Source: Patescibacteria group bacterium
GTDB lineage: Bacteria > Patescibacteriota > Microgenomatia > UBA12405
NCBI GenBank assembly: GCA_023380755.1
Contig: JAMCSD010000006.1
Location: 120,385-184,384 of the forward strand
DNA: 64,000 bases
Reading direction: 5' to 3'
The position numbers were made by a program, and so were the translations under genes. This document shows, one piece after another, positions 18,338 through 55,446 of this stretch (its first letter is position 1; each line of letters starts with the position of its first letter). A model generated the notes under the pieces. The model made no database searches and was not told the origin of the DNA. It was given only the letters and a program-made list of their open reading frames with translations.

Positions 18338-19386
18338 AAAAGAATAATCACCGAATCTCCAACAGTGAGAAACTGGCCCTCTACAGTAATTTAGCCACCA
18401 TGCTTCAGGCCGGCATTCCCATTCTGGAGGCTGTCCGTCTTTTAGCCGAGGAGTCCCATGGCAGCCTTAAAAAAATGTTGGAAGCCATCGCCGCTGACCT
18501 GGTCCAGGGAGAGGATTTAAGCACCTCTTTTTCCCGTTTTCCTGCGGCCTTCGATCGGATTACCATTAACATTCTTAAGGCTTCCGAACGTTCCGGCACC
18601 CTGGAGACTACCCTCAAAGATTTACGCAACAATTTACGCCGTGATATCGAATTTACTGACAAAGTTAAATCTTCGTTGCTTTACCCAGCCATCCTCTTGG
18701 TTGTTTTTAGTTTGGTATTTATTGTAATTCTTACTTTCGTTATCCCCCGGATTGCCATGGTCTTTAAGAACCTCAAAGTCGTTTTGCCGCTGCCTACTAA
18801 AATTTTAATTTTTGTTTCTCAAATCTTTACTACCTATACCTTGCCGATCGTTGCTCTGCTTATTGTTTTGGTTTTAGCCTTTGTCTATTTTTATGAAACC
18901 AGACGTAAATCGTTTTTTAAGGTCTTTTCCCATTTGCCGGTTGTTTCTCTTCTGGTCCGCGAGATTGACCTGACCCGTTTTTCCCGGAGTCTCGCCCTCC
19001 TTTTGGGCTCTAATGTCCCCATTGCTTCGGCCTTGGAATTAAGTCAGGATGTGGTGGTCGGCCGCGATTTAAATCAGGCCATTCTCCGCTCCCGGGACAT
19101 TATTCTTTCCGGCGGCCGGCTTTCCGAGGGCTTGCGGACCCCCCGCAAAACCATCCCGGCCGTCATTACCAAAATCATTGAATCCGGCGAAAAAAGCGGC
19201 TCCCTCGATAAATCTATGCAGGATGTTTCCGAGTATCTTGATTACAACGTCACCAATGATCTAAAGATGGTCACTACCCTGCTCGAGCCGCTTATCTTAG
19301 TTGTCGTCGGCCTTTTTGTCGGTGGTATGATGCTCTCCATCATTGCCCCCATTTACAATTTAATCGGACAAATCAGTGCCCATTAA
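18334..19386 (+). CDS. pilC: Type IV pilus platform protein PilC (GspF family)
   Basis: Two GspF-like repeats with three TM segments. The 4-nt overlap with pilB indicates translational coupling. Confidence 0.75.
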   Translation: MKKNNHRISNSEKLALYSNLATMLQAGIPILEAVRLLAEESHGSLKKMLEAIAADLVQGEDLSTSFSRFPAAFDRITINILKASERSGTLETTLKDLRNNLRRDIEFTDKVKSSLLYPAILLVVFSLVFIVILTFVIPRIAMVFKNLKVVLPLPTKILIFVSQIFTTYTLPIVALLIVLVLAFVYFYETRRKSFFKVFSHLPVVSLLVREIDLTRFSRSLALLLGSNVPIASALELSQDVVVGRDLNQAILRSRDIILSGGRLSEGLRTPRKTIPAVITKIIESGEKSGSLDKSMQDVSEYLDYNVTNDLKMVTTLLEPLILVVVGLFVGGMMLSIIAPIYNLIGQISAH

Positions 19387-19852
19387 TCGGGGGTTTGCCC
19401 CGCCGCGTCGGGGTTTTACCCTCATCGAAGTTATTATCACCATGGGGATCTTTGTGGTCCTGTTGTCTTTGGGCACCGTTTCCCTAATTAATGCCCAGCA
19501 CATTGCTTCCTTGGACACCGTCACCAATACCCTGATTACCGATCTTAAACAGCAGCAACTGAAAGCCATGGTCGGGGATACCGAAGGGCGTTTTTCCCGC
19601 AGTTCTTATGGCATTCATTTCGATACTGGTGATTATGTCCTGTTTCACGGCACTTATAATTCCAGTGACCCGACCAATTTTACCGTTCCCCTCGTGGGTT
19701 CCTTATCTTTTGCTTCCGCCGGTGAGGTCAGCTTTTCCCAGGGCAGCGGCCAGGTCACCGGCTTGTCCGTTATCACCTTGTCCGATTCTACCAACGGCCG
19801 GCAAAAAGTTATTAATTTAAATTCCTATGGCGTCGTTACCTCCCTCCACTAA
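19376..19852 (+). CDS. Prepilin-type minor pilin or pseudopilin
   Basis: Class III signal RRGFTLIEV (Gly-1, Phe+1, Glu+5) followed by a hydrophobic helix. Confidence 0.7.
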   Translation: MPINRGFAPPRRGFTLIEVIITMGIFVVLLSLGTVSLINAQHIASLDTVTNTLITDLKQQQLKAMVGDTEGRFSRSSYGIHFDTGDYVLFHGTYNSSDPTNFTVPLVGSLSFASAGEVSFSQGSGQVTGLSVITLSDSTNGRQKVINLNSYGVVTSLH

Positions 19853-21809
19853 CCGCGGCCAATCGATCGTCGATCTCGTTATCGCCATGGGTTTGTGTGC
19901 CGTTTTATTGCCGGCCCTGATTACCGGCCTGGTCGCTTCCCGTAACGGCAAAGCCCAGCAGCAGCAGCGCGACGAAGCCACCACTCTTCTTAAGGAAGCC
20001 GAGGAAGCCGTCCGCAGTATCAAAGAAAAAAGCTGGGACGATCTCGTCCCCATCGGCTCGACCTTGCACTTAGCCCGTGCCGGCACCGGCTGGAGCTTAG
20101 CGGCTTCGCCGGAAACTATTAACGGTTTTACCCGTTCGATTACCATTCATAATGTTTATCGGGACTCTAATTTCAATATCATTGGCACCGGCACCAGCGA
20201 CCAAATTGATCCCTCCACCAAAGAAGTCGCCATTACTGTTTCCTGGTCTCAGCCCATTCCCGCCACCTCTCATACTGATTTCTACCTTACCCGTTACTTA
20301 GGCAATAAATATTATGAAGATACATCTGTCGCCGATTTTAACGCCGTTGGCACCACTCAGACCAACGTCCAGGTCACAAATATATTAGGCGGCGAAGTTA
20401 TCTTAGGACCTGGTAATCTGAATGCTGATTGGTGTCAACCTAATTTAACCGTAACCACCGTCGATTTACCCAAAAACGGAGTAGCTAATGCTATCTCGGC
20501 TATTCCCGCCAACGGGTCCAATCCGGCCTATGCCTTTGCTGGCACCGGCGATAACGCTAGCGGCGTTTCCTTTGCGAAAGTTAATATTACTGATACTAAT
20601 CCTCCTCAAGCTTCCATTCCCAATCCGGGCACTTTTGATGGTTTTAAAACCAATGCTGTCTTTGGAGAAGCTAATTACGCCTACCTTGGGACTGATAACA
20701 ATTCCAAAGAAATTGAAATAATCAATTTACAGACAAATCCCTATTCTGAAGCCGGCTATTTTAACGCTCCCGGTAATGGCAATGGTAACGCTATTTATGT
20801 TGCTAATAATATCGGTTATATGGCCAGTGGAAATAAATTTTATACCTTCGATCTCAGTTCCCGGATAGGTAATCGGGGTAATCCGCTAAACAATGGTCAT
20901 GTCACTACTTTGGCCGGCACCGCCACTAAGATCAGAGTCATTAACTACCGAGCATATATTTCGGAAAATAGTACCTCACGACAAATGGAAATTATTGATG
21001 TTTCCAATCCTGCCAATCCTTCCGTTATCGGTCAAGCAGTCAGCTTAAACGATCAAGGAGCTACCGATATTTTTATCAACGATACCGAAACTCGCGCCTA
21101 TCTGGTAACTTCAGCCTCTTCCACCAAAAATGATCTTTTTGTCCTCGACATTTCCACCCATACCGGAAACCGGCCTGTTCTTACCAGTTACAACACCAAC
21201 GGTATGAGCCCAAAAGGTGTCATCGAAGTCATGAATGACCAACGATTAATTGCCGTTGGCATTGGCGGTACGGAGTATCAAGTTTATTCTTATAACGATT
21301 CCACCCACACCATTAGTCTATGTGGCCCCGGAGTTAATGTTGATAGTGGTATTAATGGGGTTGCCGCTGTCACCCAACCTTCAGGTAATGTGTACTCCTA
21401 CATCATTACCGGAGATGCCACAGCTGAATTGAAAATTATTGCTGGTGGTCCCGGCGGGAGTACTCTTTACGCCACCATAGGTTATTTTTATTCTCGACCC
21501 TTCGATTCTACTAACCCCGTAGTCTACAACCGTTTCTTTGCCAATACCGATACGCCTACTGGCACCACCATTACTTTTAAGCTTGCCGCTGCTCCGCCGG
21601 GAAGTAGTGGTTGTAGCAATGCCAATTATCAATTTGTTGGACCCGATCTTAGCATCAATACTACCTATCCCGGCAGTAGTTTTATTCCCTGGAGTAACGG
21701 CCCCAATTTCTACAATCCTGCCCGTTGTTTTAGATACGAAGCCATTCTTTCCGGTGATGGCACCCACACCCCCACCCTTTACGATTTTACGGTTAACTAC
21801 TCTCCATGA
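19827..21809 (+). CDS. Large modular pilin-like protein (660 aa): pilin-type N-terminus fused to an LVIVD-repeat beta-propeller
   Basis: N-terminus NRGQSIVDLVIAMGLCAVLL is a prepilin-like leader with Asp at +5. The C-terminal 400 aa contains repeats of the form AYLGTD...EIEIINL, AYISEN...MEIIDVSNPANP and AYLVTS...LFVLDIS, which resemble LVIVD beta-propeller blades. Confidence 0.55.
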   Translation: MASLPPSTNRGQSIVDLVIAMGLCAVLLPALITGLVASRNGKAQQQQRDEATTLLKEAEEAVRSIKEKSWDDLVPIGSTLHLARAGTGWSLAASPETINGFTRSITIHNVYRDSNFNIIGTGTSDQIDPSTKEVAITVSWSQPIPATSHTDFYLTRYLGNKYYEDTSVADFNAVGTTQTNVQVTNILGGEVILGPGNLNADWCQPNLTVTTVDLPKNGVANAISAIPANGSNPAYAFAGTGDNASGVSFAKVNITDTNPPQASIPNPGTFDGFKTNAVFGEANYAYLGTDNNSKEIEIINLQTNPYSEAGYFNAPGNGNGNAIYVANNIGYMASGNKFYTFDLSSRIGNRGNPLNNGHVTTLAGTATKIRVINYRAYISENSTSRQMEIIDVSNPANPSVIGQAVSLNDQGATDIFINDTETRAYLVTSASSTKNDLFVLDISTHTGNRPVLTSYNTNGMSPKGVIEVMNDQRLIAVGIGGTEYQVYSYNDSTHTISLCGPGVNVDSGINGVAAVTQPSGNVYSYIITGDATAELKIIAGGPGGSTLYATIGYFYSRPFDSTNPVVYNRFFANTDTPTGTTITFKLAAAPPGSSGCSNANYQFVGPDLSINTTYPGSSFIPWSNGPNFYNPARCFRYEAILSGDGTHTPTLYDFTVNYSP

Positions 21810-22309
21810 AAAAATTAACCCTCGGCTTTACTCTTACCGAAATGATGGTCTATATCGGCCTCTTTTCCATCTTTTTGCTGGTCTTAACTGAAATTTTTGT
21901 TTCCATTCTTGACGTCCAAAAGGAATCCGAAGCCCTATCCAGTGTTGAGCAGGACAGCCGTTTTATTGTTGCCCGGTTAATTTACGACATCCAGCGCGCC
22001 CATAGCATTGATTTACCTTCCACTTTGGGTAGCCAAGGTTCCACCCTCTCCTTAACCATCAACTCAACCACTAATACTTATGCCCTCAATGGAGACAATA
22101 TCGCCGTCACCATCGGCGGTACGGCCACTCAATTTAATAGTTTTGATACTACCGTTTCCAATCTGCTCTTTCAGCATCTTGGCAATCCCGGCGGCAAGCT
22201 TGATTCTGTTGAAGTGTCATTTACCGTTACCAGCCGCACCGTCCGCCCTTCCGGTCCGGAAATTAAAAATGTCGATACTGTCATTAATTTACGACCTAAC
22301 TCTTCATGA
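21806..22309 (+). CDS. Prepilin-type minor pilin or pseudopilin
   Basis: MKKLTLGFTLTEMMVYIGLFSIFLL is a class III signal with Glu+5. Confidence 0.7.
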   Translation: MKKLTLGFTLTEMMVYIGLFSIFLLVLTEIFVSILDVQKESEALSSVEQDSRFIVARLIYDIQRAHSIDLPSTLGSQGSTLSLTINSTTNTYALNGDNIAVTIGGTATQFNSFDTTVSNLLFQHLGNPGGKLDSVEVSFTVTSRTVRPSGPEIKNVDTVINLRPNSS

Positions 22310-22680
22310 AAAAATTAACCACCGGCTCTGCCACCGTCACCCTCATCATTTTTATTGCCATTGCCTCCATTATTACCACTGCCGCCATCACCACCATTGC
22401 CGTCAACTCCTTGGCCGCCTCCCGCTTCGAAGAGGGGAATGTCGCTTCCTTTGTGGCCGAATCGGGCATTGAAGAAGGTTTAATCCGCTTTTTGCGCGAC
22501 CCCCTAAATTACACCGGTGAAACCCTGACGACTTCCGATGGCCAAGCCCAAATCACCGTTTCCGCCGATAAAACCACCCTGACCTCCACCGGCACTGCCG
22601 GTAATTACGTCCGGACCATTCAAGTCCAGCTTAATTATTCCGATAATTTAACTCTCTCCTCATGGCACGAAATCTATTAA
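22306..22680 (+). CDS. PilX-like minor pilin
   Basis: A hydrophobic N-terminal helix followed by SRFEEGNVASFVAESGIEEGL, a PilX_N-like pattern. It shares its first five codons with the preceding gene. Confidence 0.45.
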   Translation: MKKLTTGSATVTLIIFIAIASIITTAAITTIAVNSLAASRFEEGNVASFVAESGIEEGLIRFLRDPLNYTGETLTTSDGQAQITVSADKTTLTSTGTAGNYVRTIQVQLNYSDNLTLSSWHEIY

Positions 22681-23717
22681 AGTTCTCCCCTAAAATAGCC
22701 GTTCTCGTGGTTCAAAAAAACGGTCTTGGCTATTACGATGACTCTCGCGAATTAAATTTTAAGTTTCCTGCGGGGGCTGTGGTTGACCAAGAAATTGTTG
22801 ACCCTCTCCAATTTACTGCCACGCTTCAACAATTTATTCACGACCATCATCTTGAGCCCCACACCCTCTTATTGGTTCTAGATAAATCCTATTGTTTTTC
22901 CAAAATCTTTACCGCCGCCCCCGCCGCCGAAGCGGTTAACGAATTCTTGGCTAACATTCCTTTTTCATCCCTATCCTCGCTTCTTGCCCCGGTCGACAAC
23001 CGCACCTATCTTTTGGCCGTCAATAAAGATCTTTATGAAACCATCAAAAACGTTTTTCATCAGTCGAAATTTAAAATCACCCTGGTTCTCCCGAGTCTGG
23101 CCCTCGAGACTGCCAATTTAACCATCAAAAAACAGCTGACCCCTCATGCTCTTAAAGAAATTTCCCAAAAACAAAAAATCCTTAAAACCTTTAATTTTCT
23201 GGGAAGCCGCTCCCCATCCTATTCCTTTAGTGCCGCCTTTAAGCGTCTCCAAAACCATTCTTCCCGCAACTTATTTATTTTGCTTCCCGTCTTTTTATTT
23301 TTAGTCATTATTTTAGGTGGCCTTTTATGGCTTCGCTCTCATCCGTCGGTTCGTTTAGTCCGCTCCGGCATTACTAATATTCACCCGATCCCGACTAAGG
23401 CAGTTACTCCCACTATCCGCCCTTATTCTTTAGAAAGTACCACCATCAAAATTATTACCGCCGCCAACCGGCCTTCTAAAAATGCCGACAAGCTCAAAGA
23501 TAATCTCGCCTCCCTGGGCTTTAAAAATGTTGTCCTTAGCTCTACTACTGCTCCCAATACTTCCGCCAAAACCATTCTTTCATTTTCTCTTCGCTATCCT
23601 GCTGATCTTAAAGATAAGATTACATCAAGTACCAATAAGTTATTTATAGATACAATTATTCAAGACGATAATAACCTGGCTGCAGATGTCGTAATCACGG
23701 TGGGACAGAGTAATTAA
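22662..23717 (+). CDS. Pilus-assembly-associated bitopic membrane protein: PilM-like N-terminal region, one TM segment, LytR_C-like C-terminal domain
   Basis: A single TM segment (LFILLPVFLFLVIILGGLLWL) occurs mid-protein. The C-terminus IKIITAANRPSKNADKLKDNLASLGFKNVVLSSTTAP...ADVVITVGQ resembles a LytR_C domain. Confidence 0.35.
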   Translation: MARNLLKFSPKIAVLVVQKNGLGYYDDSRELNFKFPAGAVVDQEIVDPLQFTATLQQFIHDHHLEPHTLLLVLDKSYCFSKIFTAAPAAEAVNEFLANIPFSSLSSLLAPVDNRTYLLAVNKDLYETIKNVFHQSKFKITLVLPSLALETANLTIKKQLTPHALKEISQKQKILKTFNFLGSRSPSYSFSAAFKRLQNHSSRNLFILLPVFLFLVIILGGLLWLRSHPSVRLVRSGITNIHPIPTKAVTPTIRPYSLESTTIKIITAANRPSKNADKLKDNLASLGFKNVVLSSTTAPNTSAKTILSFSLRYPADLKDKITSSTNKLFIDTIIQDDNNLAADVVITVGQSN

Positions 23718-23802
23718 AAGAATAAGCGGTAATTTAAATTGACAGAATAATTTATTGTATGTTATCGTGGACTTGGATTGTTAAATATTAATAAAAAAAA
23801 TT

Positions 23803-24258
23803 ATGAGCTTATCCAAGCTTCAGTCAAAATCCTCCCAGGGTTTCACCCTCATCGAATTAGTCGTTGTCATTGGTATTTTGGCCGTCCTTTTAACCATCGT
23901 CTTAGTCGCGGTTAACCCCAGCAAACAATTCCAAGCTGCTGATGACACTAAACGACGTAGTGATGTCAACGCTATTCTAAATGCTATTTCACAATATTCT
24001 GCCGATCATCACGGATTATTACCATCCGGTATTGGTGACTCTGCTGCTGAAATCGGCACCCTTACTAACCTTTGTTCTGATTTGATTACTTCTCCTGGCA
24101 ACTATATTCCCGCTCTACCAGTTGACCCCACTCTTTCCACCGGACCTATTACCACTTGCACCGGCTCTTTCACGACCGATTATAGTGCCATGCATGATTC
24201 AAGTGGACGTGTAACTGTGGCTTCAATCTTAAACTCAGATATTTCTGTAATGCGCTAA
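23803..24258 (+). CDS. pilA: Type IV major pilin (PilA-like)
   Basis: Canonical signal SQGFTLIELVVVIGILAVLL, a small 151-aa protein with a C-terminal Cys pair, and a strong terminator downstream. Confidence 0.8.
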   Translation: MSLSKLQSKSSQGFTLIELVVVIGILAVLLTIVLVAVNPSKQFQAADDTKRRSDVNAILNAISQYSADHHGLLPSGIGDSAAEIGTLTNLCSDLITSPGNYIPALPVDPTLSTGPITTCTGSFTTDYSAMHDSSGRVTVASILNSDISVMR

Positions 24259-25447: not shown

Positions 25448-25765
25448 ATGGCTGAATCTAGTTTCCGGGAGCAGGTTTACGCCCTGGCCCGTCAAATCCC
25501 CAAGGGTTTTGTCGCCACCTATGGCCAGCTGGCTGCCCTGGCCGGCCACCCCCGGGCTGCCCGGGCTGTCGGCTTTTTTATGAAAACCAATCCCGATGCT
25601 CCTCGGACTCCCTGCCACCGGGTCGTCGCCAGTGATGGCCGTTTAACCGGCTATTCTGGGGCTGGGGGAGTAGCCGCTAAACGCGCCATGCTGCAGTCTG
25701 AAGGAGTCGTGTTTAAGGGTAAAAAGGTTGATCTCTCCGTTTCTTCCTGGCTCAAAAAAACTTAA
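25448..25765 (+). CDS. ogt: Methylated-DNA-protein-cysteine methyltransferase, single DNA-binding/active-site domain
   Basis: PCHRVV active-site motif with the conserved Cys. Confidence 0.75.
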   Translation: MAESSFREQVYALARQIPKGFVATYGQLAALAGHPRAARAVGFFMKTNPDAPRTPCHRVVASDGRLTGYSGAGGVAAKRAMLQSEGVVFKGKKVDLSVSSWLKKT

Positions 25766-44158: not shown

Positions 44159-44812
44159 ATGTGTGGTCGTTATACTCTTTATACCCCCGAGGCCTTGGCC
44201 GATCATTATCACTTAGGTAATGATCTTAAGTTAGCTCCTGCCTACAACGTGGCGCCGGGAGCTGCCCATCCGGTGGTCTTCCGTGAATCTGGTACCAATC
44301 TGATTCAGGAAATGCATTGGGGTCTGATTCCCTTTTGGGCCAAGGACCCGAGCATCGGCACCCGGCTCATCAATGCCCGGGCTGATTCTGCCGCCACCAA
44401 ACCCGCCTTCCGCTCCTCCTTTAAGAGCTGCCGCTGTTTAATTCCGGCCAATGGCTTTTATGAATGGTCCCCGGCGCGCCAACCTTATTATTACCATTTA
44501 CCTCACAGCCCCCTTTTTTCTTTAGCCGGTCTTTACGATATTTGGACCGATACCTTTGGTCGCGAAATGTACTCTTTTACCATTATTACCACCGACCCCA
44601 ACTCTTTAGTCAAAACCGTCCATGACCGGATGCCGGTTATCCTCTCTGCCGACAACGAGGACCTTTGGCTGCAGCCCCACACTTCCCCCGAAACCCTCGT
44701 CTCCTTATTTGCGCCCTTTCCGGAACATCAAATGAAGGCTTATCCCGTCGCCCCTTTAGTCAATAATCCCTCCAGCAACACCCCCGATCTTATCAAAGAA
44801 ATTCCCCATTAA
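44159..44812 (+). CDS. SOS-response-associated peptidase (SRAP/YedK) abasic-site processing protein
   Basis: N-terminal MCGRY with the catalytic Cys2 and family-typical length. Confidence 0.8.
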   Translation: MCGRYTLYTPEALADHYHLGNDLKLAPAYNVAPGAAHPVVFRESGTNLIQEMHWGLIPFWAKDPSIGTRLINARADSAATKPAFRSSFKSCRCLIPANGFYEWSPARQPYYYHLPHSPLFSLAGLYDIWTDTFGREMYSFTIITTDPNSLVKTVHDRMPVILSADNEDLWLQPHTSPETLVSLFAPFPEHQMKAYPVAPLVNNPSSNTPDLIKEIPH

Positions 44813-45628: not shown

Positions 45629-46624
45629 ATGTCAAAATTAGTGGCCGAAATTAACAAACGGAAGGTTTACTCAGATAAGGAAGTTCGAGCCATCGTCGAC
45701 ACCAAAGTCTACTTTGTCGATGGTAGTTGGTGCGATGTCGCCACCGGTGAAACCGTCAACAACGGCCCTGGTTCTATAAGCTTCGATAATCCAGGTGCTA
45801 CCGCTGAAAAGATCACTGTCGGCCCAACCCCCTTCATGGCTAGTTCTTTAGAAGTTCGTGGCGTAATAGCCGATGTCGAAATCAATGTCAAATCTAGTCC
45901 CACCATCGAGGTCGAAATTACGGGTCCGAAAAAGGAAGTCGAGGCCATCAAGGTCGCCAAAGTTGGGGATACGGTCGTCGTCGAAAGCGAGGATCGCGAC
46001 ACCGGCTTTTCCAGAAGCCAGGGGACGACAGTCATTGCTGGCAGTGGTAACGTGGTGACTCGTATTGGTAGGGCCCGTGGTATGGTTATTTCCGGTGATC
46101 TGGTCATGGGTCGTCGGCGGACGGTCATTTCCACCGGAGATATGTATGTCTCGGGCGATAATGTCATTCTCTCCGGAGGCGGCGAGGCCAGCACCAAGGT
46201 CATCATCGGTGTGCCTCAAAAGACGGGTGTCACCGTTACCAAGGTTACCGGTAATACCGTTATCGGCGATACCCAAGGTCGGGTGTCCGTCAGTGGTAAC
46301 AATGGTGAAATGAGGATTGGTCGTGTTGGCCCTGCCAAACTTGGAGTTTCCGGTAGTAGTGACATTAGCGTCAAAGAAGTCACTGGCTCCATGCTCGACA
46401 TCCGTATCATGGGTTCTGGCGATATCCGGATCGAAGCTGGTCAAGTGGATCAGTTGTCGGTCGAAGTCATGGGCTCCGGTGATGCCCGCTTTCATGGCCG
46501 CGCCACTGACAGCAACCTAAGCATCATGGGTTCCGGCGACATTTGGGTGGCCCATTCGGTCAACAAGCCAGTCGAAGATGTCATGGGCTCAGGGGATATT
46601 CACGTTAGTCGAGTTGGCAATTAA
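45629..46624 (+). CDS. DUF2807/DUF4097 (GIN-domain) beta-helical repeat protein
   Basis: Periodic V/I-x-G-SGD-I/A repeats (MGSGDIRI, VMGSGDARF, IMGSGDIWV, VMGSGDIHV). The gene lies in the GC-elevated block. Confidence 0.5.
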   Translation: MSKLVAEINKRKVYSDKEVRAIVDTKVYFVDGSWCDVATGETVNNGPGSISFDNPGATAEKITVGPTPFMASSLEVRGVIADVEINVKSSPTIEVEITGPKKEVEAIKVAKVGDTVVVESEDRDTGFSRSQGTTVIAGSGNVVTRIGRARGMVISGDLVMGRRRTVISTGDMYVSGDNVILSGGGEASTKVIIGVPQKTGVTVTKVTGNTVIGDTQGRVSVSGNNGEMRIGRVGPAKLGVSGSSDISVKEVTGSMLDIRIMGSGDIRIEAGQVDQLSVEVMGSGDARFHGRATDSNLSIMGSGDIWVAHSVNKPVEDVMGSGDIHVSRVGN

Positions 46625-46795
46625 TCTCGTTAGTTCCTAAACCGCTTGGGTTTTTGATTATCATAATCACTGACCCCGGCGGTTTTTTTTGTTTAAAAAT
46701 TACCTGCACCCATACGGCAAAAACTAAGATATTGTTTACCAGCATTTGGTACCCTTTTTCTTAATCTTTGCCCGTATGGGTGTAACTGTCGTCTT

Positions 46796-47143
46796 TTACC
46801 ACTTCGGGATTTCGACGACGACTTCGCCATCTGGATCCTGGAGCACTATCCTGACAGCGTTTTTTTGGCTGTCCCTTTGGGTCAGATTAGTAAAATTCTT
46901 TCCGATCCACAACAGGCGGCACCAGATATTCCCGACCACTCTCACTTCGGAATCCTCTGGGAAAAACACTGTCCTAACTGCGTGCTCATCTTCGACTACC
47001 AGCATATAGCCTTCGGCCACACTGACGCTGGTGACTAGTCCCTGATAAGCGAAATTTAGAATTGGGGTCTCCGGGGCACAAAGCTTGGCCAGTCTTTCGC
47101 GCTCCAACCGCAGCTCTTCAGCTGTCCACTTTCTCGGGTTCAT
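46796..47143 (-). CDS. Hypothetical protein (about 115 aa); start re-assigned to the ATG at 47143
   Basis: An AAGGGAGGA ribosome-binding site sits 7 nt upstream of the ATG at 47143-47141. The track start (47206) would place the N-terminus inside a structured RNA motif. The gene lies in the GC-elevated block. Confidence 0.45.
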   Translation of the reverse strand: MNPRKWTAEELRLERERLAKLCAPETPILNFAYQGLVTSVSVAEGYMLVVEDEHAVRTVFFPEDSEVRVVGNIWCRLLWIGKNFTNLTQRDSQKNAVRIVLQDPDGEVVVEIPKW

Positions 47144-47169
47144 GAAAATCCTCCCTTTTAAACGAACTT

Positions 47170-47222
47170 GAGTATTTCGTCCTTTCGGACTCATCGGGTC
47201 TGACACTCATCAGACGATACTC
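47170..47222 (-). ncRNA. Hammerhead-ribozyme-like motif (type III topology) in the intercistronic leader
   Basis: The minus-strand RNA reads GAGUAUC / GUCUGA-UGAGUG-UCAGAC / CCGAUGA / GUCC-GAAA-GGAC / GAAA / UACUC. It has stem III from its two ends, a stem I hairpin, a stem II hairpin GUCC-GAAA-GGAC, the GAAA core and an NUH site (AUC). It deviates from the core only at position 4 (C instead of U). A perfect CUGAUGAG copy also occurs in loop I. Confidence 0.4.
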
Positions 47223-47310
47223 ACCCCACACCTCGACCCCGAGACCAAAAAACTTGAAACCGCACGAGGGCTTCTTGTCTTTTGGTCTCTGTAGGCCGGG
47301 TGTTTAGAGC

Positions 47311-48585
47311 TTAGCTAGTGCGCGGATCGAAGTCCAACTTGACCCACTTACCGTTAACGAACATTTCAAACCACTTGTCCGCGACGAAGTCGTCATGGAC
47401 GTAATGACTCGAATCATGGCGGGGATCAGGGTCCCACACACGGCGAAGGTCACGATCCTCCAAGTTCGTCCCGCCCCATTCGAGGTGAGCCGGAAAAGGA
47501 TTCTTGCCTTCACGGTCCGAATGCTGCAGGAAGACCCGCATTTCCACGTCACCACTTCGGGCCATTTCCGTGAGCATTCGACGGAAGAGGGTGTAGCGGG
47601 TCCAGTAAATCGTGTGCTCTGCGGGAGACTCAACAAACACAATCCGTTCATCGCGAACCGGAGGTCGTAAGCCTTTGCCGGCAGGGAGTAGCTTCCAGAC
47701 CAGACGATTGTTCTCGAAGGCCATGGTCAAACCATTGGCCATCCACACCATTATCGAAACGGTCGCTTCACCATTCCAGTACTCCGCCTCCCCAGCCGTC
47801 AGGTTCCACTTGGCGACCCGAGCCGTATGCAGCTCTGCAAAGTCAACCTCTCTCGATGGCGAAGTGGCGGCTTTTGTCTTCGGTTCCTCGGTCTGAGCCT
47901 GTTGGCTTGCTCGCTTGGCGGCGATTTGGGCATCGCTCCATTCGGTCTCCAAGCACCAAGGCTTAGCCCGCAACACCGGATTGCCATTTCGGTCCGTGGT
48001 GTCGATGACGATGAACTTGACACCAGTGCCGACTCGGGGCGCATAATCCAACAAGCTAGGTGTCCAGGTTACTGACCCGTCGGCGCCCAAGGTGGGTAAG
48101 CCATGGTCATTCTGGTCGAAGAACACCTCATCGTTGGCGCTATTTACGTTGAAGAAACCCTGGGACATCCAGTGGAACGGGTACTTGAGTACCTTACCAT
48201 CGATTATGCCCCGAGGCGTTGTCGTCGCCGAGAGCGGCTGCTCCTTGGCCCAATCATAGTTTTTCTCAAAAGCCCAGAGTATTGCCGGCCGTCGATTGCC
48301 TTCTTCGGGCTTTTCGTCGCTGGCGATAAAGACTATCTGGTCACCAACTCTTGGCTCTGGTAGTACGTCATCAGGAAAGCTCGAGGGAACCCATTCCAGG
48401 TGATCGGCGACGGGGCGGATAAAGTAGCCCGCATTCCGGTGAATGAAGAATTCCTCCGGCATGCCGTCAGGTCCTTTGCTAATAGCATACCCAAAGTGTC
48501 GTCCGATGTTGTTCCAGCGGACAATACGTCCCACCTTCAAACCGTCGGTGCTGAACCACAAACTCTGCGGTTGATTCCTGCTCAT
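47311..48585 (-). CDS. Protein with N-terminal cold-shock domain followed by further OB-like segments and a long unknown C-terminal region (424 aa)
   Basis: Residues 18-55 (GRIVRWNNIGRHFGYAISKGPDGMPEEFFIHRNAG) match the CSD signature (GxVKWFNxxKGFGFI...DxFVH). AAAAGGAGA ribosome-binding site. GC-rich codon usage that is atypical for the window. Confidence 0.5.
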   Translation of the reverse strand: MSRNQPQSLWFSTDGLKVGRIVRWNNIGRHFGYAISKGPDGMPEEFFIHRNAGYFIRPVADHLEWVPSSFPDDVLPEPRVGDQIVFIASDEKPEEGNRRPAILWAFEKNYDWAKEQPLSATTTPRGIIDGKVLKYPFHWMSQGFFNVNSANDEVFFDQNDHGLPTLGADGSVTWTPSLLDYAPRVGTGVKFIVIDTTDRNGNPVLRAKPWCLETEWSDAQIAAKRASQQAQTEEPKTKAATSPSREVDFAELHTARVAKWNLTAGEAEYWNGEATVSIMVWMANGLTMAFENNRLVWKLLPAGKGLRPPVRDERIVFVESPAEHTIYWTRYTLFRRMLTEMARSGDVEMRVFLQHSDREGKNPFPAHLEWGGTNLEDRDLRRVWDPDPRHDSSHYVHDDFVADKWFEMFVNGKWVKLDFDPRTS

Positions 48586-49700: not shown

Positions 49701-49994
49701 TTGTCCTTTCGGGTTTTATTCGGGTATACTTATCTTATGAATCTCAAGGTCGATGTCCCGGTTGCCGTTACCTTATTATACGAGCCCAAAGGGGCCAAAA
49801 TCTGCCCTTTGGCCGTTCGCTGGGATGGCCGGGTTTACCGGATTAGCAAATTAGGCTTGCACCACACCTTCCGTGAGGGCCGCACCCTTTACCATGTTTT
49901 TTCCGTGGCTTCGGAAACCGCCTTTTTTCGTTTAGTTTTAAACACCGACAACTTATTTTGGCGCCTAACGGAGGTCTCTGATGGTGAATCCTAA
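49701..49994 (+). CDS. Small hypothetical protein translationally coupled to the Y-family polymerase (possible accessory factor)
   Basis: It overlaps the downstream polymerase gene by 14 nt. An ATG at 49737 is an alternative start. No recognised motif. Confidence 0.4.
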   Translation: MSFRVLFGYTYLMNLKVDVPVAVTLLYEPKGAKICPLAVRWDGRVYRISKLGLHHTFREGRTLYHVFSVASETAFFRLVLNTDNLFWRLTEVSDGES

Positions 49995-51249
49995 GCCGGT
50001 CATTGGACTGCCCTTCAACCAAAAGCCTTCCACCCTGCTCCATATCGACCTTAATTCCTGCTTTGCCACCATTGAGCAGCAGGCCAATCCCTTGCTCCGC
50101 GGCCGGCCCATTGCCGTGGCGGCCTACACTACTCCTTCCGGCTGTATCTTGGCCCCATCGGTGGAGGCCAAACGCCTCGGCGTTAAGGTCGGCATGCGGG
50201 TCAAAGAGGGGAAACTCTTGTGTCCGGACCTCCAAATCCTTGGCCCCGACCCCTGGAAATACCGCAATATTCATCTCCAGCTGAAGACCCTCCTTTCCCA
50301 ATACAGTGCCTCTGTAGTCCCTAAATCCATTGATGAATTTGTCGTCGACCTGGAGGGTTACCCCAGTTTTCAGTGGGGGGTTCAGACCGCCGCCCAAACT
50401 ATCAAAAATCGCATTAAACAGGAAATTGGCGACTGGCTGACGGTTTCCGTCGGCATCGGCCCCAACCGTTTTTTGGCCAAACTCGCCGCTGGCCTCAAAA
50501 AACCCGATGGCCTGGAAGAAATTAACTGCCAAAATTATTCTGATGTTTATCGCCACTTAACTTTAATGGATATTACCGGCATTAAAAAGGCCAATACTGC
50601 CCGCCTTAATTCTGTCGGCGTCTATACCGTCCTCGATTTTTACCGCGCCCCGGTTTCCGCTCTGCGCTCGGCTTTTCATTCTATTAACGGCTATTACTGG
50701 TACTTGCGCCTCCGTGGCTGGGAGATTGATGACGTAGATTTCGGCCGTAAAAGCTTTGGCAACATGTATTCTTTGCCGGAAACCAAAACTACTCCCGAGG
50801 AGCTTTCTCCCATTCTTCACAAACTGGTGGAAAAGTCGTCTGAGCGCATGCGGAGTGCTGGCTACTTTGCCCGCGGCGTCCATGTGGCCCTCCTTTATCG
50901 TGACCATTCTTTTTGGCATCATGGCCATGTCAGCCACGATCTCCTTTACGACCCCCGCGACGTTTACAAATCTGCCTTTCGCATTTTAACCGCCGCTCCC
51001 TACCGCAAACCGGTGGCCAACCTCGCCATTTCTTGTTTTGATTTACAAAAGACTGCCACCTGCCAACTCGATCTTTTCCGTGACCTTAATCGGCAAACCC
51101 GGTTGGTTGATGCTATTGATGATGTCAACCAGCGTTGGGGTAGCTTTGTCATTACTCCGGCGGCCATGTTGGCTGCCCGCGACCTGGTTCCCGACCGGAT
51201 TGCCTTTGGTGGCGTCAAAGAATTAGAGCAGTATATTTTGGCAAAATAA
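49981..51249 (+). CDS. Y-family DNA polymerase (DinB/UmuC-like)
   Basis: LLHIDLNSCFATIEQ (compare HVDMDCFFAAVE) and the catalytic SIDEFVVDLEG motif are present, with a C-terminal little-finger region. Confidence 0.75.
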   Translation: MVNPKPVIGLPFNQKPSTLLHIDLNSCFATIEQQANPLLRGRPIAVAAYTTPSGCILAPSVEAKRLGVKVGMRVKEGKLLCPDLQILGPDPWKYRNIHLQLKTLLSQYSASVVPKSIDEFVVDLEGYPSFQWGVQTAAQTIKNRIKQEIGDWLTVSVGIGPNRFLAKLAAGLKKPDGLEEINCQNYSDVYRHLTLMDITGIKKANTARLNSVGVYTVLDFYRAPVSALRSAFHSINGYYWYLRLRGWEIDDVDFGRKSFGNMYSLPETKTTPEELSPILHKLVEKSSERMRSAGYFARGVHVALLYRDHSFWHHGHVSHDLLYDPRDVYKSAFRILTAAPYRKPVANLAISCFDLQKTATCQLDLFRDLNRQTRLVDAIDDVNQRWGSFVITPAAMLAARDLVPDRIAFGGVKELEQYILAK

Positions 51250-51317
51250 CCCGATTTTGTGAGATAATACTCCGTCTTTTGATTTCGCACTTTCACATAC
51301 TAAGGAAGGTTATTTGT

Positions 51318-51731
51318 ATGTTGCAACAACTACTGTTCGCCACCCCCGATCGTCGCCAAACCGGTCAACTTTATTACTTAGCTTACAATTTGCCGGGAAA
51401 TCATATCTTTTTCACCGTTACAAAAAATGAGATAGTTGGAGTTGATTTTCGTGCTTTTGCCGTTGCTCAAATTAAAAGTGATCTAAAAATTCCTGAGTAC
51501 GCTCTCAACTACTTCTACTTTGAAATCTGTACTCACCGACTCTACCCAGAACTTCAATCAGGCGAATATCGGGTCAATATTTGTGTCCCCAGTCAACGAC
51601 ATGGTCGAAACATGGTCGACGTCTATCCGTTTACGAGTACTCTTACTCAAGGTCCGCTCACTTTCAACACCCACACCTTGTGGACGCTACCATTCGAAGT
51701 GACAAAAGAGTTTGCTGAGTTTATTGCCTAA
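51318..51731 (+). CDS. Hypothetical protein, paralog 1 of an unknown family
   Basis: AAGGAAGG ribosome-binding site. It shares motifs with the next gene (LWTLPFEVTKEFAEFI versus LWQLPKAVLHEFRTYI, and SGEYRVNICVPSQRH versus PGEYEAYYVFCQRRN). Confidence 0.45.
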   Translation: MLQQLLFATPDRRQTGQLYYLAYNLPGNHIFFTVTKNEIVGVDFRAFAVAQIKSDLKIPEYALNYFYFEICTHRLYPELQSGEYRVNICVPSQRHGRNMVDVYPFTSTLTQGPLTFNTHTLWTLPFEVTKEFAEFIA

Positions 51732-51739
51732 GGAGTCAC

Positions 51740-52369
51740 ATGAGAATCATTAAATCGGAGCTTCTGCCGGCTAATGCCAGCCTTGTGGTTTACAGCCGCT
51801 ACCTCGATCAAATTTTCTTTACTGGCTTGTCCCCCTTTGGCCGGGCCATGTCCACGGTCAATCAAGCCGAAGAAATTATCATTGCTCTTTGCCAGCAGGA
51901 AAGGCTTGATCTTCACGGCACGATGTTTTTTGACCTCCGGACCCATCTTCAATATGACTATTTGCGCCCCGGAGAGTATGAAGCTTATTATGTTTTTTGC
52001 CAGCGCCGCAATCTCCACGTTAGCCTCCACTGGCAGCTTATGTCAGCTAACACCGACCGCTTTAAAACCCGTGACCTTTGGCAACTTCCTAAGGCCGTTC
52101 TCCATGAATTTCGTACCTACATCTTTGCTCCCCGCTGGGGTGAGGAAGTGACCCTCAACCTCGTCGATTGGATTGCCGGACTGACTCCCGATGAAGTTGA
52201 AAAGGAAATAAATACTCTCGTCCAGTCTGCCAATCTGCAACTCCAACCATCGGATAAAGAAACCACTGCTATCCAGTTGCGGCTCGCCCTGCGCCATTTT
52301 TTCGAAAATCCCTCACGTTACTCTCATTTACCTACCGTTTCGGCAGCCTTAGCCCCGATCCCTCTTTAG
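51740..52369 (+). CDS. Hypothetical protein, paralog 2 of the same unknown family
   Basis: See paralog 1. Tandem arrangement with an 8-nt intergenic gap. Confidence 0.45.
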   Translation: MRIIKSELLPANASLVVYSRYLDQIFFTGLSPFGRAMSTVNQAEEIIIALCQQERLDLHGTMFFDLRTHLQYDYLRPGEYEAYYVFCQRRNLHVSLHWQLMSANTDRFKTRDLWQLPKAVLHEFRTYIFAPRWGEEVTLNLVDWIAGLTPDEVEKEINTLVQSANLQLQPSDKETTAIQLRLALRHFFENPSRYSHLPTVSAALAPIPL

Positions 52370-52600: not shown

Positions 52601-52723
52601 TTGCTTTATTTTTGTACTTTAACAACCCGAGAGTATTTACACCTAACTTTGGAATGATGCGTTCGCTGTGCCCCGCTACCGCGGGATAGAGTGAACGTAT
52701 CAATCTACAAAGGAAGGTTAATC

Positions 52724-54445
52724 ATGTTTACCCGCCAGTTTCGTTTTTTACCGTTAGCCGTATACATTATCATTCTGTCTGCCTGCGCTACGTCCGTTGC
52801 GGTTACCGGTAGCGGTACTCCCATGGAGTATCTTTACGATCAGGTCTCGCAAGGGACACTCGCTGCCTGGGGTTTTGCCCACCTCGTGGTGCCTATACTC
52901 TGGGCTTGTGTGGTCGGTGTCGTTCTTGGCGCCTTCACCAATAAAGGCGTTGGTTTTATTGCCGGTATTGTTGTCGCGGTTGGTATCTTTATTTTCATGT
53001 CTGGTGATATCAACAATCGTGCTGATGCCCAGGGCATTCATGCCATGACTGCTGGTTTCGACCAAGCCAAGACTAATAAAGCCAATGTCTACATCGAAGT
53101 TTTGCATGTTCCGATAGTGGCTGCCACGGTTCAAACCCGCTCTTGCCGCTCCTCCATCAATTCCTCGACAGGTTGCGGTCCCTATGAATGGAGCCACGAA
53201 GTTAATCCTCATAAGTGCAACTGCACCTGCACCAGCAAGACCAAAAGTGGAACTTGTCTTAGTGAATCCTGTAACACCTGTTGGGATACAGAATACGTTC
53301 CGTACTTTAACCAGCTCGATCAGTATGCCATACGTGTTCGGATGATGGACTCGCTAGCTAATTCCGAAACGGGACTCACCAAAGATCCCAACACCAAGGA
53401 TTGCCCGACGCGTATCCTCTCCGATCATTGGATGGTACCGCCTGACTATAACAGTCACTGGTATGGAGGCAGCCGCTATCAGGTTAAAGCATCCGACTAC
53501 ACCCCACCCGCTGATTGGACTTTGTACTCCAACGCCTTGAAAAACAACACCATTCCTTTGGCGAATGTCTATCACCAGTATACTAATTGGACCTTCGCCT
53601 CCGACGCTACGGTCTACCGACAGACGCAAAACAATGTCGCTACCTACCAAAAAGCCGGACTCTTGCCGACTATGAATACCATATATAGTCGCCTTGGTCA
53701 GGGCTGGCCGGCGGCTTACGACTTTGTCCAATTCGTTGGTGGCCTCCATGTACCCCAGGATCAATACCAAGCTTGGCAAGATCTCGCGAGCACCTTCAGT
53801 ACCTTCTTTGGCAATGACCGCCAAGGTTCACTTGAGTTGGTCTTTGCGCCGAAGACTGCTGTTGATTCGCTGGGTACGGTCGATCTTTGGGCCGATACCA
53901 TCAGGGCTGCTTATTCTGCCAAGGGTGCTTGGGACTTTAGCCTCAACGGCCAAAAACTCCAGCGGCTAATGCCCAAGAACATGTTCATCATCGCCTGCGA
54001 AGTGGACGGCAACACCATCCCCGCCGCTGGCTGTCGTTTCCGCACCGGAATGCCTCAAGGCAACGAGCAAGTCATTGATGACTTTGCTACCGGTCGGCCG
54101 ACCCAACTTCTGAACATGACCTTCGCGCCAGTAAGCTTCTTTGGTGATCTTAAAGCCGTCCCGGCTCCCGGTAAAGACGGTTTCCCGGTGGTCAAATTAC
54201 AGCGAGACGGCAATCATCCGATTGATCTTCTCTTGCGCGATGACCCCGCCGGTGTTCGTCGTATCAGTATGAAAGGGTACGATTATCTGAAAGCGGATAT
54301 CACCTTGGACCAGTCAGAAATGACGGCCTTGGTTAACGCCGAGATTAAGGTCCAATCCGATGCCGCCCTCGTCTCAATAATCATCCCGATCGTGGCTTTA
54401 GTCATTGTCGGATTTGGTTTGGTTGCTATCAAGAGTCAGAGTTAA
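52724..54445 (+). CDS. Large Cys-rich membrane/surface protein (N-terminal lipobox-like signal, TM segments, Cys-rich extracytoplasmic domain, C-terminal TM anchor)
   Basis: AAGGAAGG ribosome-binding site before the ATG at 52724. Lipobox-like IILSAC, two further TM helices, a cysteine cluster (CRSSINSSTGCGPYEW...CNCTCTSKTKSGTCLSESCNTCW) and a C-terminal TM helix. Confidence 0.5.
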   Translation: MFTRQFRFLPLAVYIIILSACATSVAVTGSGTPMEYLYDQVSQGTLAAWGFAHLVVPILWACVVGVVLGAFTNKGVGFIAGIVVAVGIFIFMSGDINNRADAQGIHAMTAGFDQAKTNKANVYIEVLHVPIVAATVQTRSCRSSINSSTGCGPYEWSHEVNPHKCNCTCTSKTKSGTCLSESCNTCWDTEYVPYFNQLDQYAIRVRMMDSLANSETGLTKDPNTKDCPTRILSDHWMVPPDYNSHWYGGSRYQVKASDYTPPADWTLYSNALKNNTIPLANVYHQYTNWTFASDATVYRQTQNNVATYQKAGLLPTMNTIYSRLGQGWPAAYDFVQFVGGLHVPQDQYQAWQDLASTFSTFFGNDRQGSLELVFAPKTAVDSLGTVDLWADTIRAAYSAKGAWDFSLNGQKLQRLMPKNMFIIACEVDGNTIPAAGCRFRTGMPQGNEQVIDDFATGRPTQLLNMTFAPVSFFGDLKAVPAPGKDGFPVVKLQRDGNHPIDLLLRDDPAGVRRISMKGYDYLKADITLDQSEMTALVNAEIKVQSDAALVSIIIPIVALVIVGFGLVAIKSQS

Positions 54446-54465
54446 GTAATCGGAGGTAAAAACAC

Positions 54466-55446
54466 ATGAACCGCAAGAATAGTTTGACCCTGTTTGCCCT
54501 TTCGCTCGTCATCGCTTTGCTCGCTGCCTGTGGCTCTCCGGCTCAAACCGCCCTCGGTTTGTCCGCTGGTTTGAAAACCGCTTATATAGAAGCGGATACG
54601 GTCTACAGTCAGCTAGTCACCCAAGAAACCACCATCGACGCCGATTACCAAGTCTGGATGGAATCGTACAGTACGATGTTGGCTGGTGCCGGGGATCAGC
54701 TCACGCTGGTCAACCAGTGCTTCAGCAACACCGCCACAGTGATTGCCCAGGCAGCTAATAGCGTTTTCTCCAAGGATGCCAACGGTAACCCCGTTTCGGC
54801 AGCCGATGAAAACAAGGCCTTCATCAATGCCTTAGGTACGGGTGGCTCACTTTATGCCGGGAACGTTGACAAATGCCAGCAAGCCGCCTTGGATCTTATG
54901 TCCTATGTCCGCGTCAAGCGTGACAGCTTGCTTGGTGCTCGGACCAAGATCATTGACGAACTTCGTGCCTACGACTTGAGCCAGGTACGCAATCTCAAAA
55001 TTGCCACGGTGATGCACTTCTACAACCAGTACGGGCCTGAACTGGCACAACTGGAACAGAAGGGCGAAACCGCCCTCCTCGATGCGGTCGCTTCCGGTGC
55101 CGGCCTCCAGCCGATGCCGATTACCTTCATTGGTTTTCCGACTTCGGCGTTGAAGGTTGAGTCCCGCAGTCAGGATATCTGTTCGTATTATTACGGCCTG
55201 TATACCGGCGAAACCAAGACGCCCCAGAATCGGAATAAGGAGTTGTACTTAACGGATGACTGGAATCCGGCTTTAAAGAGCTGTCAGCTCTATCGTTACT
55301 CGGCTTATGAGTACATGAGCCGGGCGTTCCTGACTCAGCAAGCCTCAGTCCGCATTGATTGTGGACAAGATGCCGGAATTCAGGACAAAATGAATCCCGA
55401 TTGCACCGTCTCTTCACCGACCGCCGAACCCACCAAGACCAAGTAA
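54466..55446 (+). CDS. Lipoprotein, hypothetical (326 aa)
   Basis: Signal peptide with lipobox LLAACGSP, immediately downstream of the Cys-rich protein. Confidence 0.5.
   Translation: MNRKNSLTLFALSLVIALLAACGSPAQTALGLSAGLKTAYIEADTVYSQLVTQETTIDADYQVWMESYSTMLAGAGDQLTLVNQCFSNTATVIAQAANSVFSKDANGNPVSAADENKAFINALGTGGSLYAGNVDKCQQAALDLMSYVRVKRDSLLGARTKIIDELRAYDLSQVRNLKIATVMHFYNQYGPELAQLEQKGETALLDAVASGAGLQPMPITFIGFPTSALKVESRSQDICSYYYGLYTGETKTPQNRNKELYLTDDWNPALKSCQLYRYSAYEYMSRAFLTQQASVRIDCGQDAGIQDKMNPDCTVSSPTAEPTKTK

Follow-up and report, generated by a model that had tools for sequence, protein, structure and literature searches.

Which of its neighbours belong with a Y-family DNA polymerase, and how is the resulting unit controlled? 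The question is raised by a 64,000-nt stretch of a Patescibacteria group bacterium genome (contig JAMCSD010000006.1, positions 120,385 to 184,384; hereafter the window, in whose own numbering all positions are given), where a polymerase gene is preceded by a small open reading frame (ORF) and followed by two tandem paralogous genes, here called B and C. A prediction made from the sequence alone, to which we refer as the original prediction, had grouped these four genes as a polymerase cassette comparable to umuDC, yolD-uvrX or imuA-imuB-dnaE2 and had proposed that they form a damage-tolerance module with novel accessory proteins. All four ORFs were confirmed, all on the + strand, and our analysis assigns them to two different units. 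The segment 49701-51249, which holds the small ORF and the polymerase, is likely an operon of two genes for translesion synthesis, probably under SOS regulation, which is conserved among Microgenomates-type members of the candidate phyla radiation (CPR) and which matches the published module of a Y-family polymerase (PolY) with a standalone ImuB-C domain (and RecA); B and C appear to lie outside it.

The small ORF (49737-49994, + strand) encodes 85 aa from its likely start, ATG 49737, the longest possible reading beginning at TTG 49701, and the polymerase gene (49981-51249, + strand) encodes 422 aa. The two genes overlap, as had been predicted; the overlap measures 14 nt, and a GGAGG Shine-Dalgarno sequence (49970-49974) lies within the 3′ end of the small ORF, 6 nt ahead of the polymerase ATG, the whole element spanning 49970-49983 on the + strand. 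When one genome from each GTDB species was surveyed, 195 genomes proved to contain a relative of the small ORF, and 80 loci were kept from these; with 5 metagenome loci these make up the 85 loci that we inspected, all of them from the Microgenomates part of the CPR (individual loci are cited by our labels, such as L001). The informative record titles among the kept GTDB loci name Woese-, Shapiro-, Ames-, Collier-, Curtiss- and Daviesbacteria. Many GTDB-representative metagenome-assembled genomes with a cassette of the CPR type are titled ‘uncultured Gammaproteobacteria bacterium’ or ‘uncultured Pseudomonadales bacterium’, which appears to be placeholder mislabelling and not taxonomy.

At 84 of the 85 loci the small ORF is followed by a polymerase on its own strand, and the single unpaired locus is on a contig that ends 17 nt past the small ORF. 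Gene overlap and residue conservation were measured over 77 orthologous loci. In 54 of these the polymerase gene begins before the small ORF has ended, the two mostly sharing 17 nt. Compared with their counterparts in the window, the small proteins have a median identity of 58% and the polymerases one of 61%, from which it follows that the small protein is under constraint as strong as that on the polymerase. CPR genomes are very small, and yet relatives of the small protein are found in at least 195 species genomes, the polymerase follows at 84 of the 85 loci, and the small protein is about as conserved as the polymerase; this speaks for a small subunit that is functionally required in translesion synthesis there. 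The idea of an accessory cassette thus holds for the upstream ORF, where the near-constant pairing, the frequent overlaps and an SOS-like operator (see below) converge, and we consider the small protein very likely to be a dedicated partner of the polymerase, with which it may form a physical complex. One observation counts against so close a partnership. More than 150 nt separate the two genes at 8 of the 77 loci, and at 3 of these other genes intervene, so the coupling is not obligatory.

The intervening genes occur at L037:4272-8125, L045:2332-5805 and L054:4289-5607, in one Amesbacteria and two Woesebacteria genomes. All three inserts place a DUF3800 gene directly upstream of the polymerase, and those of L037 and L045 contain, in addition, an Eco57I/Type ISP-like restriction-modification fusion of 900-1019 aa. 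These inserts reflect either a recurrent insertion point within the operon or an unexplained association with DUF3800. A 237-aa ORF on the minus strand of the window (49843-50556) was dismissed, as it falls entirely within the conserved polymerase gene.

The polymerase matches the Pfam domains IMS (E = 7e-35) and IMS_C (E = 2.5e-12). Its best NCBIfam matches are Pol IV models (PRK03103 and PRK01810) and not UmuC, and its best PDB matches are also Pol IV; all of its NCBIfam scores stay under the equivalog cut-offs, which places it in a divergent subgroup. The original prediction of a catalytically intact DinB/UmuC-like enzyme is borne out by the catalytic residues D23, D118 and E119, the latter two in the SIDE motif, which are conserved in 74 of 77 orthologues, with the correction that the first motif reads D23-L-N25 (‘HIDLNSCF’) and is not DxD. 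Beyond the catalytic domains, a beta-clamp motif, QLDLF, is found at residues 362-366 (Q in 74/77, L in 65/77 and F in 69/77 orthologues), followed by a conserved segment, LVDAIDDVNQRWGSFVITPAAM (375-396), that by eye resembles the RecA N-terminus ALEDAIKNIEKAHGKGSIMKFG of the RecA encoded at L102. It would correspond to the RecA-NT-like motif of PMC6511836, a helix-strand element placed after the clamp motif. The C-terminal tail, VPDRIAFGGVKELE, is conserved as well.

The small protein and the candidate operator

The small protein has more than 283 homologues, nearly all of 86 aa, and the 120 listed share 55-84% identity with it; those with a name belong to Woesebacteria, Shapirobacteria and related groups, and none has a Pfam annotation. 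An AlphaFold2 model built on 106 homologues is confident (pLDDT 94.5, pTM 0.83) and shows an all-beta protein of seven strands. Within the family W75 never varies, and W29, K38, R46 and R65 hardly do. The window protein itself has no Pfam, NCBIfam or PHROG match, no PDB relative was found by sequence-profile search or by fold (Foldseek), no match was found among viral models (Foldseek against BFVD), and tblastn of the family consensus against plasmids returned chance matches only.

Profile searches, which the original prediction had recommended for all three small proteins, did yield a lead for this one, in the form of a weak similarity to DUF6504, and gave no Pfam match for B or C. When 106 family members were scanned against Pfam at a permissive threshold (E ≤ 10, 18 families listed), PF20114 (DUF6504) was matched by 12 of the 106, at best with E = 4e-4 and always below the gathering score; all other families were matched by at most 4 members each. 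Peptidase_S24 (UmuD) and YolD (PF08863) are not among the listed families, in agreement with the earlier remark that neither UmuD nor YolD could be recognised, and we dropped these identities for the small ORF because the profile signal is absent. To learn what DUF6504 covers, we located the imuB-dnaE2 genes on Sinorhizobium meliloti pSymA. The C-terminus of this ImuB (residues 429-499) matches DUF6504 with E = 0.007, and a match to its residues 29-503 from Komagataeibacter rhaeticus, which sits at the edge of a record of 3,007 bp, bears the name ‘DUF6504 family protein’ in its annotation. Together these matches indicate that DUF6504 also covers the ImuB C-terminal domain, and we take it to correspond to the ImuB-C domain of Aravind et al. 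(PMC3765255). That domain is described as about 80-100 aa long, as consisting mainly of beta strands with a conserved Trp and basic residues and as having no catalytic pattern (PMC3765255, PMC12926913), and in its standalone form as ‘most frequently combined with DinB’, in many cases close to LexA or SRAP (Aravind 2013, PMC3765255). Active PolYs with RecA N-terminus motifs are coupled to standalone ImuB-C, including in an SOS-induced lexA-imuB-C-polY operon of Geobacter (Timinskas & Venclovas 2019, PMC6511836), and a 2026 survey describes ImuB-C as a beta-barrel whose fold is novel and has no close relative in the PDB (PMC12926913). The strands, the Trp and basic residues, the pairing with DinB and the lack of a PDB relative all fit the small protein and speak for its being an ImuB-C domain.

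The control region is compact. Between the stop of the upstream NAGPA-domain gene (49692) and ATG 49737 there are 44 nt, which hold a promoter-like site on the + strand consisting of a −35 element (TTGTCC, 49701-49706), an 18-nt spacer and a −10 element (TATACT, 49725-49730). The original prediction had suggested looking upstream of the cassette for a LexA or other SOS operator, and a direct repeat that is a candidate for such an operator fills the spacer. It consists of two TTCGGG units separated by TTTTA (TTCGGGTTTTATTCGGG, 49708-49724, + strand), has an 11-bp period, and occurs nowhere else in the window, even with up to 3 mismatches allowed. Most of the 85 loci repeat the arrangement TTGAC-TTCGGGTTTTATTCGGG-TATAAT upstream of the small ORF, some with two tandem boxes, and 74 of the 85 contain a degenerate form of the box, which with few exceptions lies no more than about 300 nt ahead of that ORF. 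In the window, the ATG of the small ORF comes 6 nt past the −10 element and has no Shine-Dalgarno sequence, which makes a leaderless mRNA probable. In many other genomes, too, the small ORF starts 5-8 nt past the −10 element without a Shine-Dalgarno sequence and the second cistron has a strong GGAGG, which suggests that leaderless translation of the first cistron is conserved.

We also scanned metagenome contigs for the exact 17-mer TTCGGGTTTTATTCGGG, which returned 120 loci. The small ORF follows the box in 17 of these. Elsewhere the genes that it directly precedes include recA, Y-family polymerases that lack the small ORF, a radical-SAM/helix-hairpin-helix (HhH) repair gene and polA; eight times the 17-mer directly precedes an imuA-like gene, which ImuB follows in two cases. 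It also precedes genes for a Dcm methylase, RhuM/Fic proteins and XRE regulators. The contigs that carry the 17-mer are of very different composition, and one operator sequence is apparently shared across distant lineages. Among the cassette loci, L016 has a second complete promoter of the form TTGACA-box-TATAT on its minus strand (L016:3000-3824), which drives a YkuD-like L,D-transpeptidase gene converging on the polymerase; this gene could be an extra regulon member in that genome.

How far these observations identify the small protein depends on the weight given to weak profile signals. We rate homology to ImuB-C, as a divergent standalone DUF6504-like protein, as probable, with some reserve: the window protein, the family consensus and 10 hand-picked members have no significant Pfam match, the hidden-Markov-model-to-sequence scores against ImuB C-termini are not significant, and a comparison of the family with 12 ImuB C-termini by hhalign is marginal, with P = 0.006 but a probability of only 6%. 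These figures weigh against the identification and, together with the lack of a fold match in the PDB or among viral models, would suit a protein unrelated to ImuB-C, namely a CPR-specific and structurally new accessory subunit of DinB-type polymerases that has come by convergence to a regulatory role like that of UmuD′ or YolD. We regard such an origin as unlikely, if worth keeping in mind. DUF6504 is by far the most recurrent of the weak Pfam matches and itself matches an ImuB C-terminus; the hhalign alignment stays co-linear from one end of the domain to the other, with P-x-x-[VF]-x-W-x-G-[RK] as its anchor; the gene context agrees exactly with the one published for standalone ImuB-C (PMC3765255, PMC6511836); and ImuB-C, too, is reported to be without PDB relatives (PMC12926913). 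Two plasmid polymerase loci, from Paracoccus and Subdoligranulum, were examined for a standalone ImuB-C neighbour and had none. A bolder proposal along the same lines, and to our minds a similarly doubtful one, is that the 86-aa protein stands for a new class of polymerase accessory subunits, spread throughout the CPR, whose beta fold has not been seen before and which are produced at a fixed ratio to the DinB-type polymerase from a leaderless SOS transcript. If this were true, the reduced Microgenomates genomes would have evolved a minimal ‘mutasome’ of their own.

The operator calls for a similar weighing. The presence of the same 17-mer before recA, imuA-like, Y-family polymerase and other repair genes makes it a probable LexA/SOS operator, a candidate for the GTTC-N7-GTTC class. 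The points that weaken this assignment are the positions of the 17-mer upstream of genes without an obvious SOS role (thiD-like, PIN, RhuM/Fic and Dcm) and the absence of a lexA gene from the window and from every fetched locus, so that the identity of the repressor is one that we infer. Both would be expected if the direct repeat were not a LexA box and belonged instead to another regulator, or were an element of promoter architecture common in several phyla, and one conserved group of about ten contigs has the 17-mer in a conserved context some 550-580 nt upstream of a thiD-like kinase gene. We nevertheless think it improbable that the repeat has such a role, because the genes directly downstream of the 17-mer are strongly enriched for classic SOS members (recA, the eight imuA-like genes, Y-family polymerases, the radical-SAM/HhH gene and polA), the 11-bp period and the TTC core match the published direct-repeat LexA motif GTTC-N7-GTTC (PMC8565304), and a location between the −35 and −10 elements is typical of a repressor site.

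Tandem paralogs and the variable island

Downstream of the polymerase, gene B (51318-51731, + strand) encodes 137 aa from its likely start, ATG 51318, with a TTG further upstream at 51279, and gene C (51740-52369, + strand) encodes 209 aa, made up of an alpha/beta core of about 130 aa and a C-terminal extension. Both belong to an orphan family, and their predicted homology to each other is confirmed by BLASTP (E = 2e-5, 32% identity over 71 aa). A word-indexed search of 5.8 billion proteins returned only the queries themselves, and when 1.84 billion cluster representatives were searched exhaustively by HMMER with a profile of B and C, two relatives were added, P0123 (E = 2.8e-4) and P0124 (E = 5.7e-4). 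These share with C the blocks ‘VVY.RYG.QI.F.GL...ST[IV]N.AE.[VI]I.A’ and ‘FFDL.T..GY...PG.YE’, and in tblastn of C against a small database of fetched loci their loci were recovered with E = 1.4e-15 (L007) and 1.2e-10 (L006). Judged by these sequence similarities, the family is real but extremely rare. Neither B and C nor the two relatives have a match in Pfam, NCBIfam, PHROGs or PADLOC, and a scan of viral contigs found no member. An AlphaFold2 model of the family core (pLDDT 68.8, pTM 0.69) has an alpha/beta arrangement without a fold match in the PDB, where a sequence-profile search gave nothing below E = 0.1 either. From the ‘FTGL...ST[IV]N’ block, which C, P0123 and P0124 conserve, 13 residues are missing in B, and B has a GC content of 0.43 vs 0.50, with a lower GC content at third codon positions as well; it may be a degenerating or fast-diverging copy.

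The original prediction suggested that B and C may be novel accessory proteins in a damage-tolerance module with the polymerase; on this reading the four genes would be co-transcribed. The arrangement in the window invites this interpretation: the paralogs lie on the same strand as the polymerase, B begins 68 nt after the polymerase stop when measured to its likely ATG (65 nt had been stated), B and C are 8 nt apart, and no terminator is predicted between the polymerase and B, so that read-through into B is possible. B is, however, preceded by a Shine-Dalgarno sequence of its own, AAGGAAGG, and by a −10-like GATAAT. The comparison of loci tells more strongly against a shared function. Relatives of B and C are found in none of the 85 orthologous cassettes, which include those of relatives with 84% and 72% polymerase identity, and the two other members among the 1.84 billion representatives have no polymerase neighbour on their contigs, P0124 lying on a 2.0-kb contig after a gene for a polyhydroxyalkanoate-granule regulator and P0123 on a 6.8-kb contig after a major facilitator superfamily transporter and a membrane protein. 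The family thus showed no co-occurrence with Y-family polymerases, the outcome that the original prediction itself had named as speaking against its proposal.

The surroundings of the paralogs point in the same direction. The window shares with L001, the relative with 84% identity, the upstream order PAP2-DAGK-x-SRAP, the polymerase, and downstream cellulase and PMT_2 genes, and shares with L003 the NAGPA gene directly upstream of the cassette. The segment between polymerase and cellulase is variable, and in the window it contains B, C, a 584-aa membrane protein and a 326-aa lipoprotein, whereas in L001 it contains four unrelated genes (DUF4342 and ORFs of 129, 150 and 409 aa). The best reading of B and C is therefore that they are strain-specific cargo of a hypervariable island, unrelated to translesion synthesis, and we give an accessory role very little credence. 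The two larger genes of this island (52691-55446) encode the 584-aa protein, which has N-terminal membrane segments and many cysteines, and the predicted 326-aa lipoprotein; neither has a significant family match.

The window also contains, as had been pointed out, an SRAP gene (44159-44812, Pfam E = 6e-69) and an ORF with an MGMT/Ogt domain and a PCHR motif (25457-25765). We dismissed their membership in one operon or module with the cassette, since they lie 5 kb and 24 kb away with unrelated genes between. SRAP is found at a similar distance from the cassette in L001, and its proximity deserves mention because an association of ImuB-C with SRAP has been published (PMC3765255). A second variable segment (45629-48585), between conserved Nuc_deoxyrib_tr and NAGPA genes, encodes a DUF2807/DUF4097 ‘toastrack’ adhesin-like protein of 331 aa and ORFs of 136 aa and 424 aa without a family match. 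Further upstream, at 19376-24258, a pilus or competence-type cluster is suggested by three ORFs with the prokaryotic N-terminal methylation motif, a typical feature of type IV pilin-like proteins.

A model of the operon and its comparison with known systems

Taken together, the features of the operon suggest the following course of events. A repressor, most likely LexA, would bind TTCGGG-N5-TTCGGG between the −35 and −10 elements, and DNA damage would lead to derepression and to the synthesis of a probably leaderless mRNA. The first cistron of this mRNA would yield the 85-aa beta-domain protein, and translation of the polymerase cistron would start from the Shine-Dalgarno sequence and ATG that lie within the last part of the first; given this embedded start, both proteins would be made together by translational coupling. 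The small protein might then act as a non-catalytic partner or adaptor of the polymerase, which would dock on the beta clamp via QLDLF and on RecA via its motif resembling the RecA N-terminus. B and C would have no part in this system, although they could be read through from the operon. With proteins of 85 aa and 422 aa, the pair offers a compact system for working out the function of an ImuB-C-type domain, and the conserved operator gives access to the SOS regulon of a lineage that is uncultured. The paralogs make an instructive negative result, as tandem genes beside a repair gene that appear to be variable-island cargo and not an accessory module.

Several known systems share part of this organization. 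As in UmuD′2C (Pol V) and in the YolD/YqjX-UvrX/YqjW systems, a small co-expressed gene lies upstream of a polymerase that has a RecA N-terminus motif (putative in our case) and a C-terminal tail that is conserved, and that is under SOS control (predicted in our case). Unlike in those systems, the small-protein family has no Peptidase_S24 or YolD match, and the polymerase scores as DinB and not as UmuC. With the ImuA-ImuB-DnaE2 mutasome the operon has in common a probable ImuB-C domain and a candidate SOS box, the identical 17-mer standing before imuA-like genes in other metagenome contigs; it differs in having a catalytically intact Y-family protein and a beta domain on a polypeptide of its own, and in that no ImuA or DnaE2 is encoded in the locus. 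The box itself resembles the direct-repeat LexA boxes of Alphaproteobacteria (GTTC-N7-GTTC, PMC8565304) in being a direct repeat with an 11-bp period and a TTC core that overlaps the promoter of a repair gene, and is distinguished from them by its TTCGGG unit and T-rich spacer.

The closest counterpart, which was missing from the analogues named in the original prediction, is the standalone ImuB-C/DUF6504 protein that partners active PolYs (PMC3765255, PMC6511836, PMC12926913), as in lexA-imuB-C-polY of Geobacter sulfurreducens and in Clostridia, where ImuB-C occurs with a YqjH-type polymerase. Published ImuB-C surveys are based on complete genomes of cultured species, and we did not find the Microgenomates or other CPR bacteria covered in them. 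The CPR protein is shorter (85-86 aa) than in those modules and remains below the Pfam threshold for DUF6504, and compared with the Geobacter operon the CPR operon has no lexA, an apparently leaderless transcript and ORFs that overlap by 14-17 nt. In both, a small all-beta gene lies directly upstream of an intact DinB/YqjH-like polymerase with a motif that resembles the RecA N-terminus (by eye in our case), control appears to be of SOS type, and no DnaE2 or ImuA is needed; the recurrent if weak DUF6504 signal of the CPR family agrees with this likeness. The operon is thus best described as a CPR member of the known module in which standalone ImuB-C accompanies an active PolY, together with RecA and the clamp.

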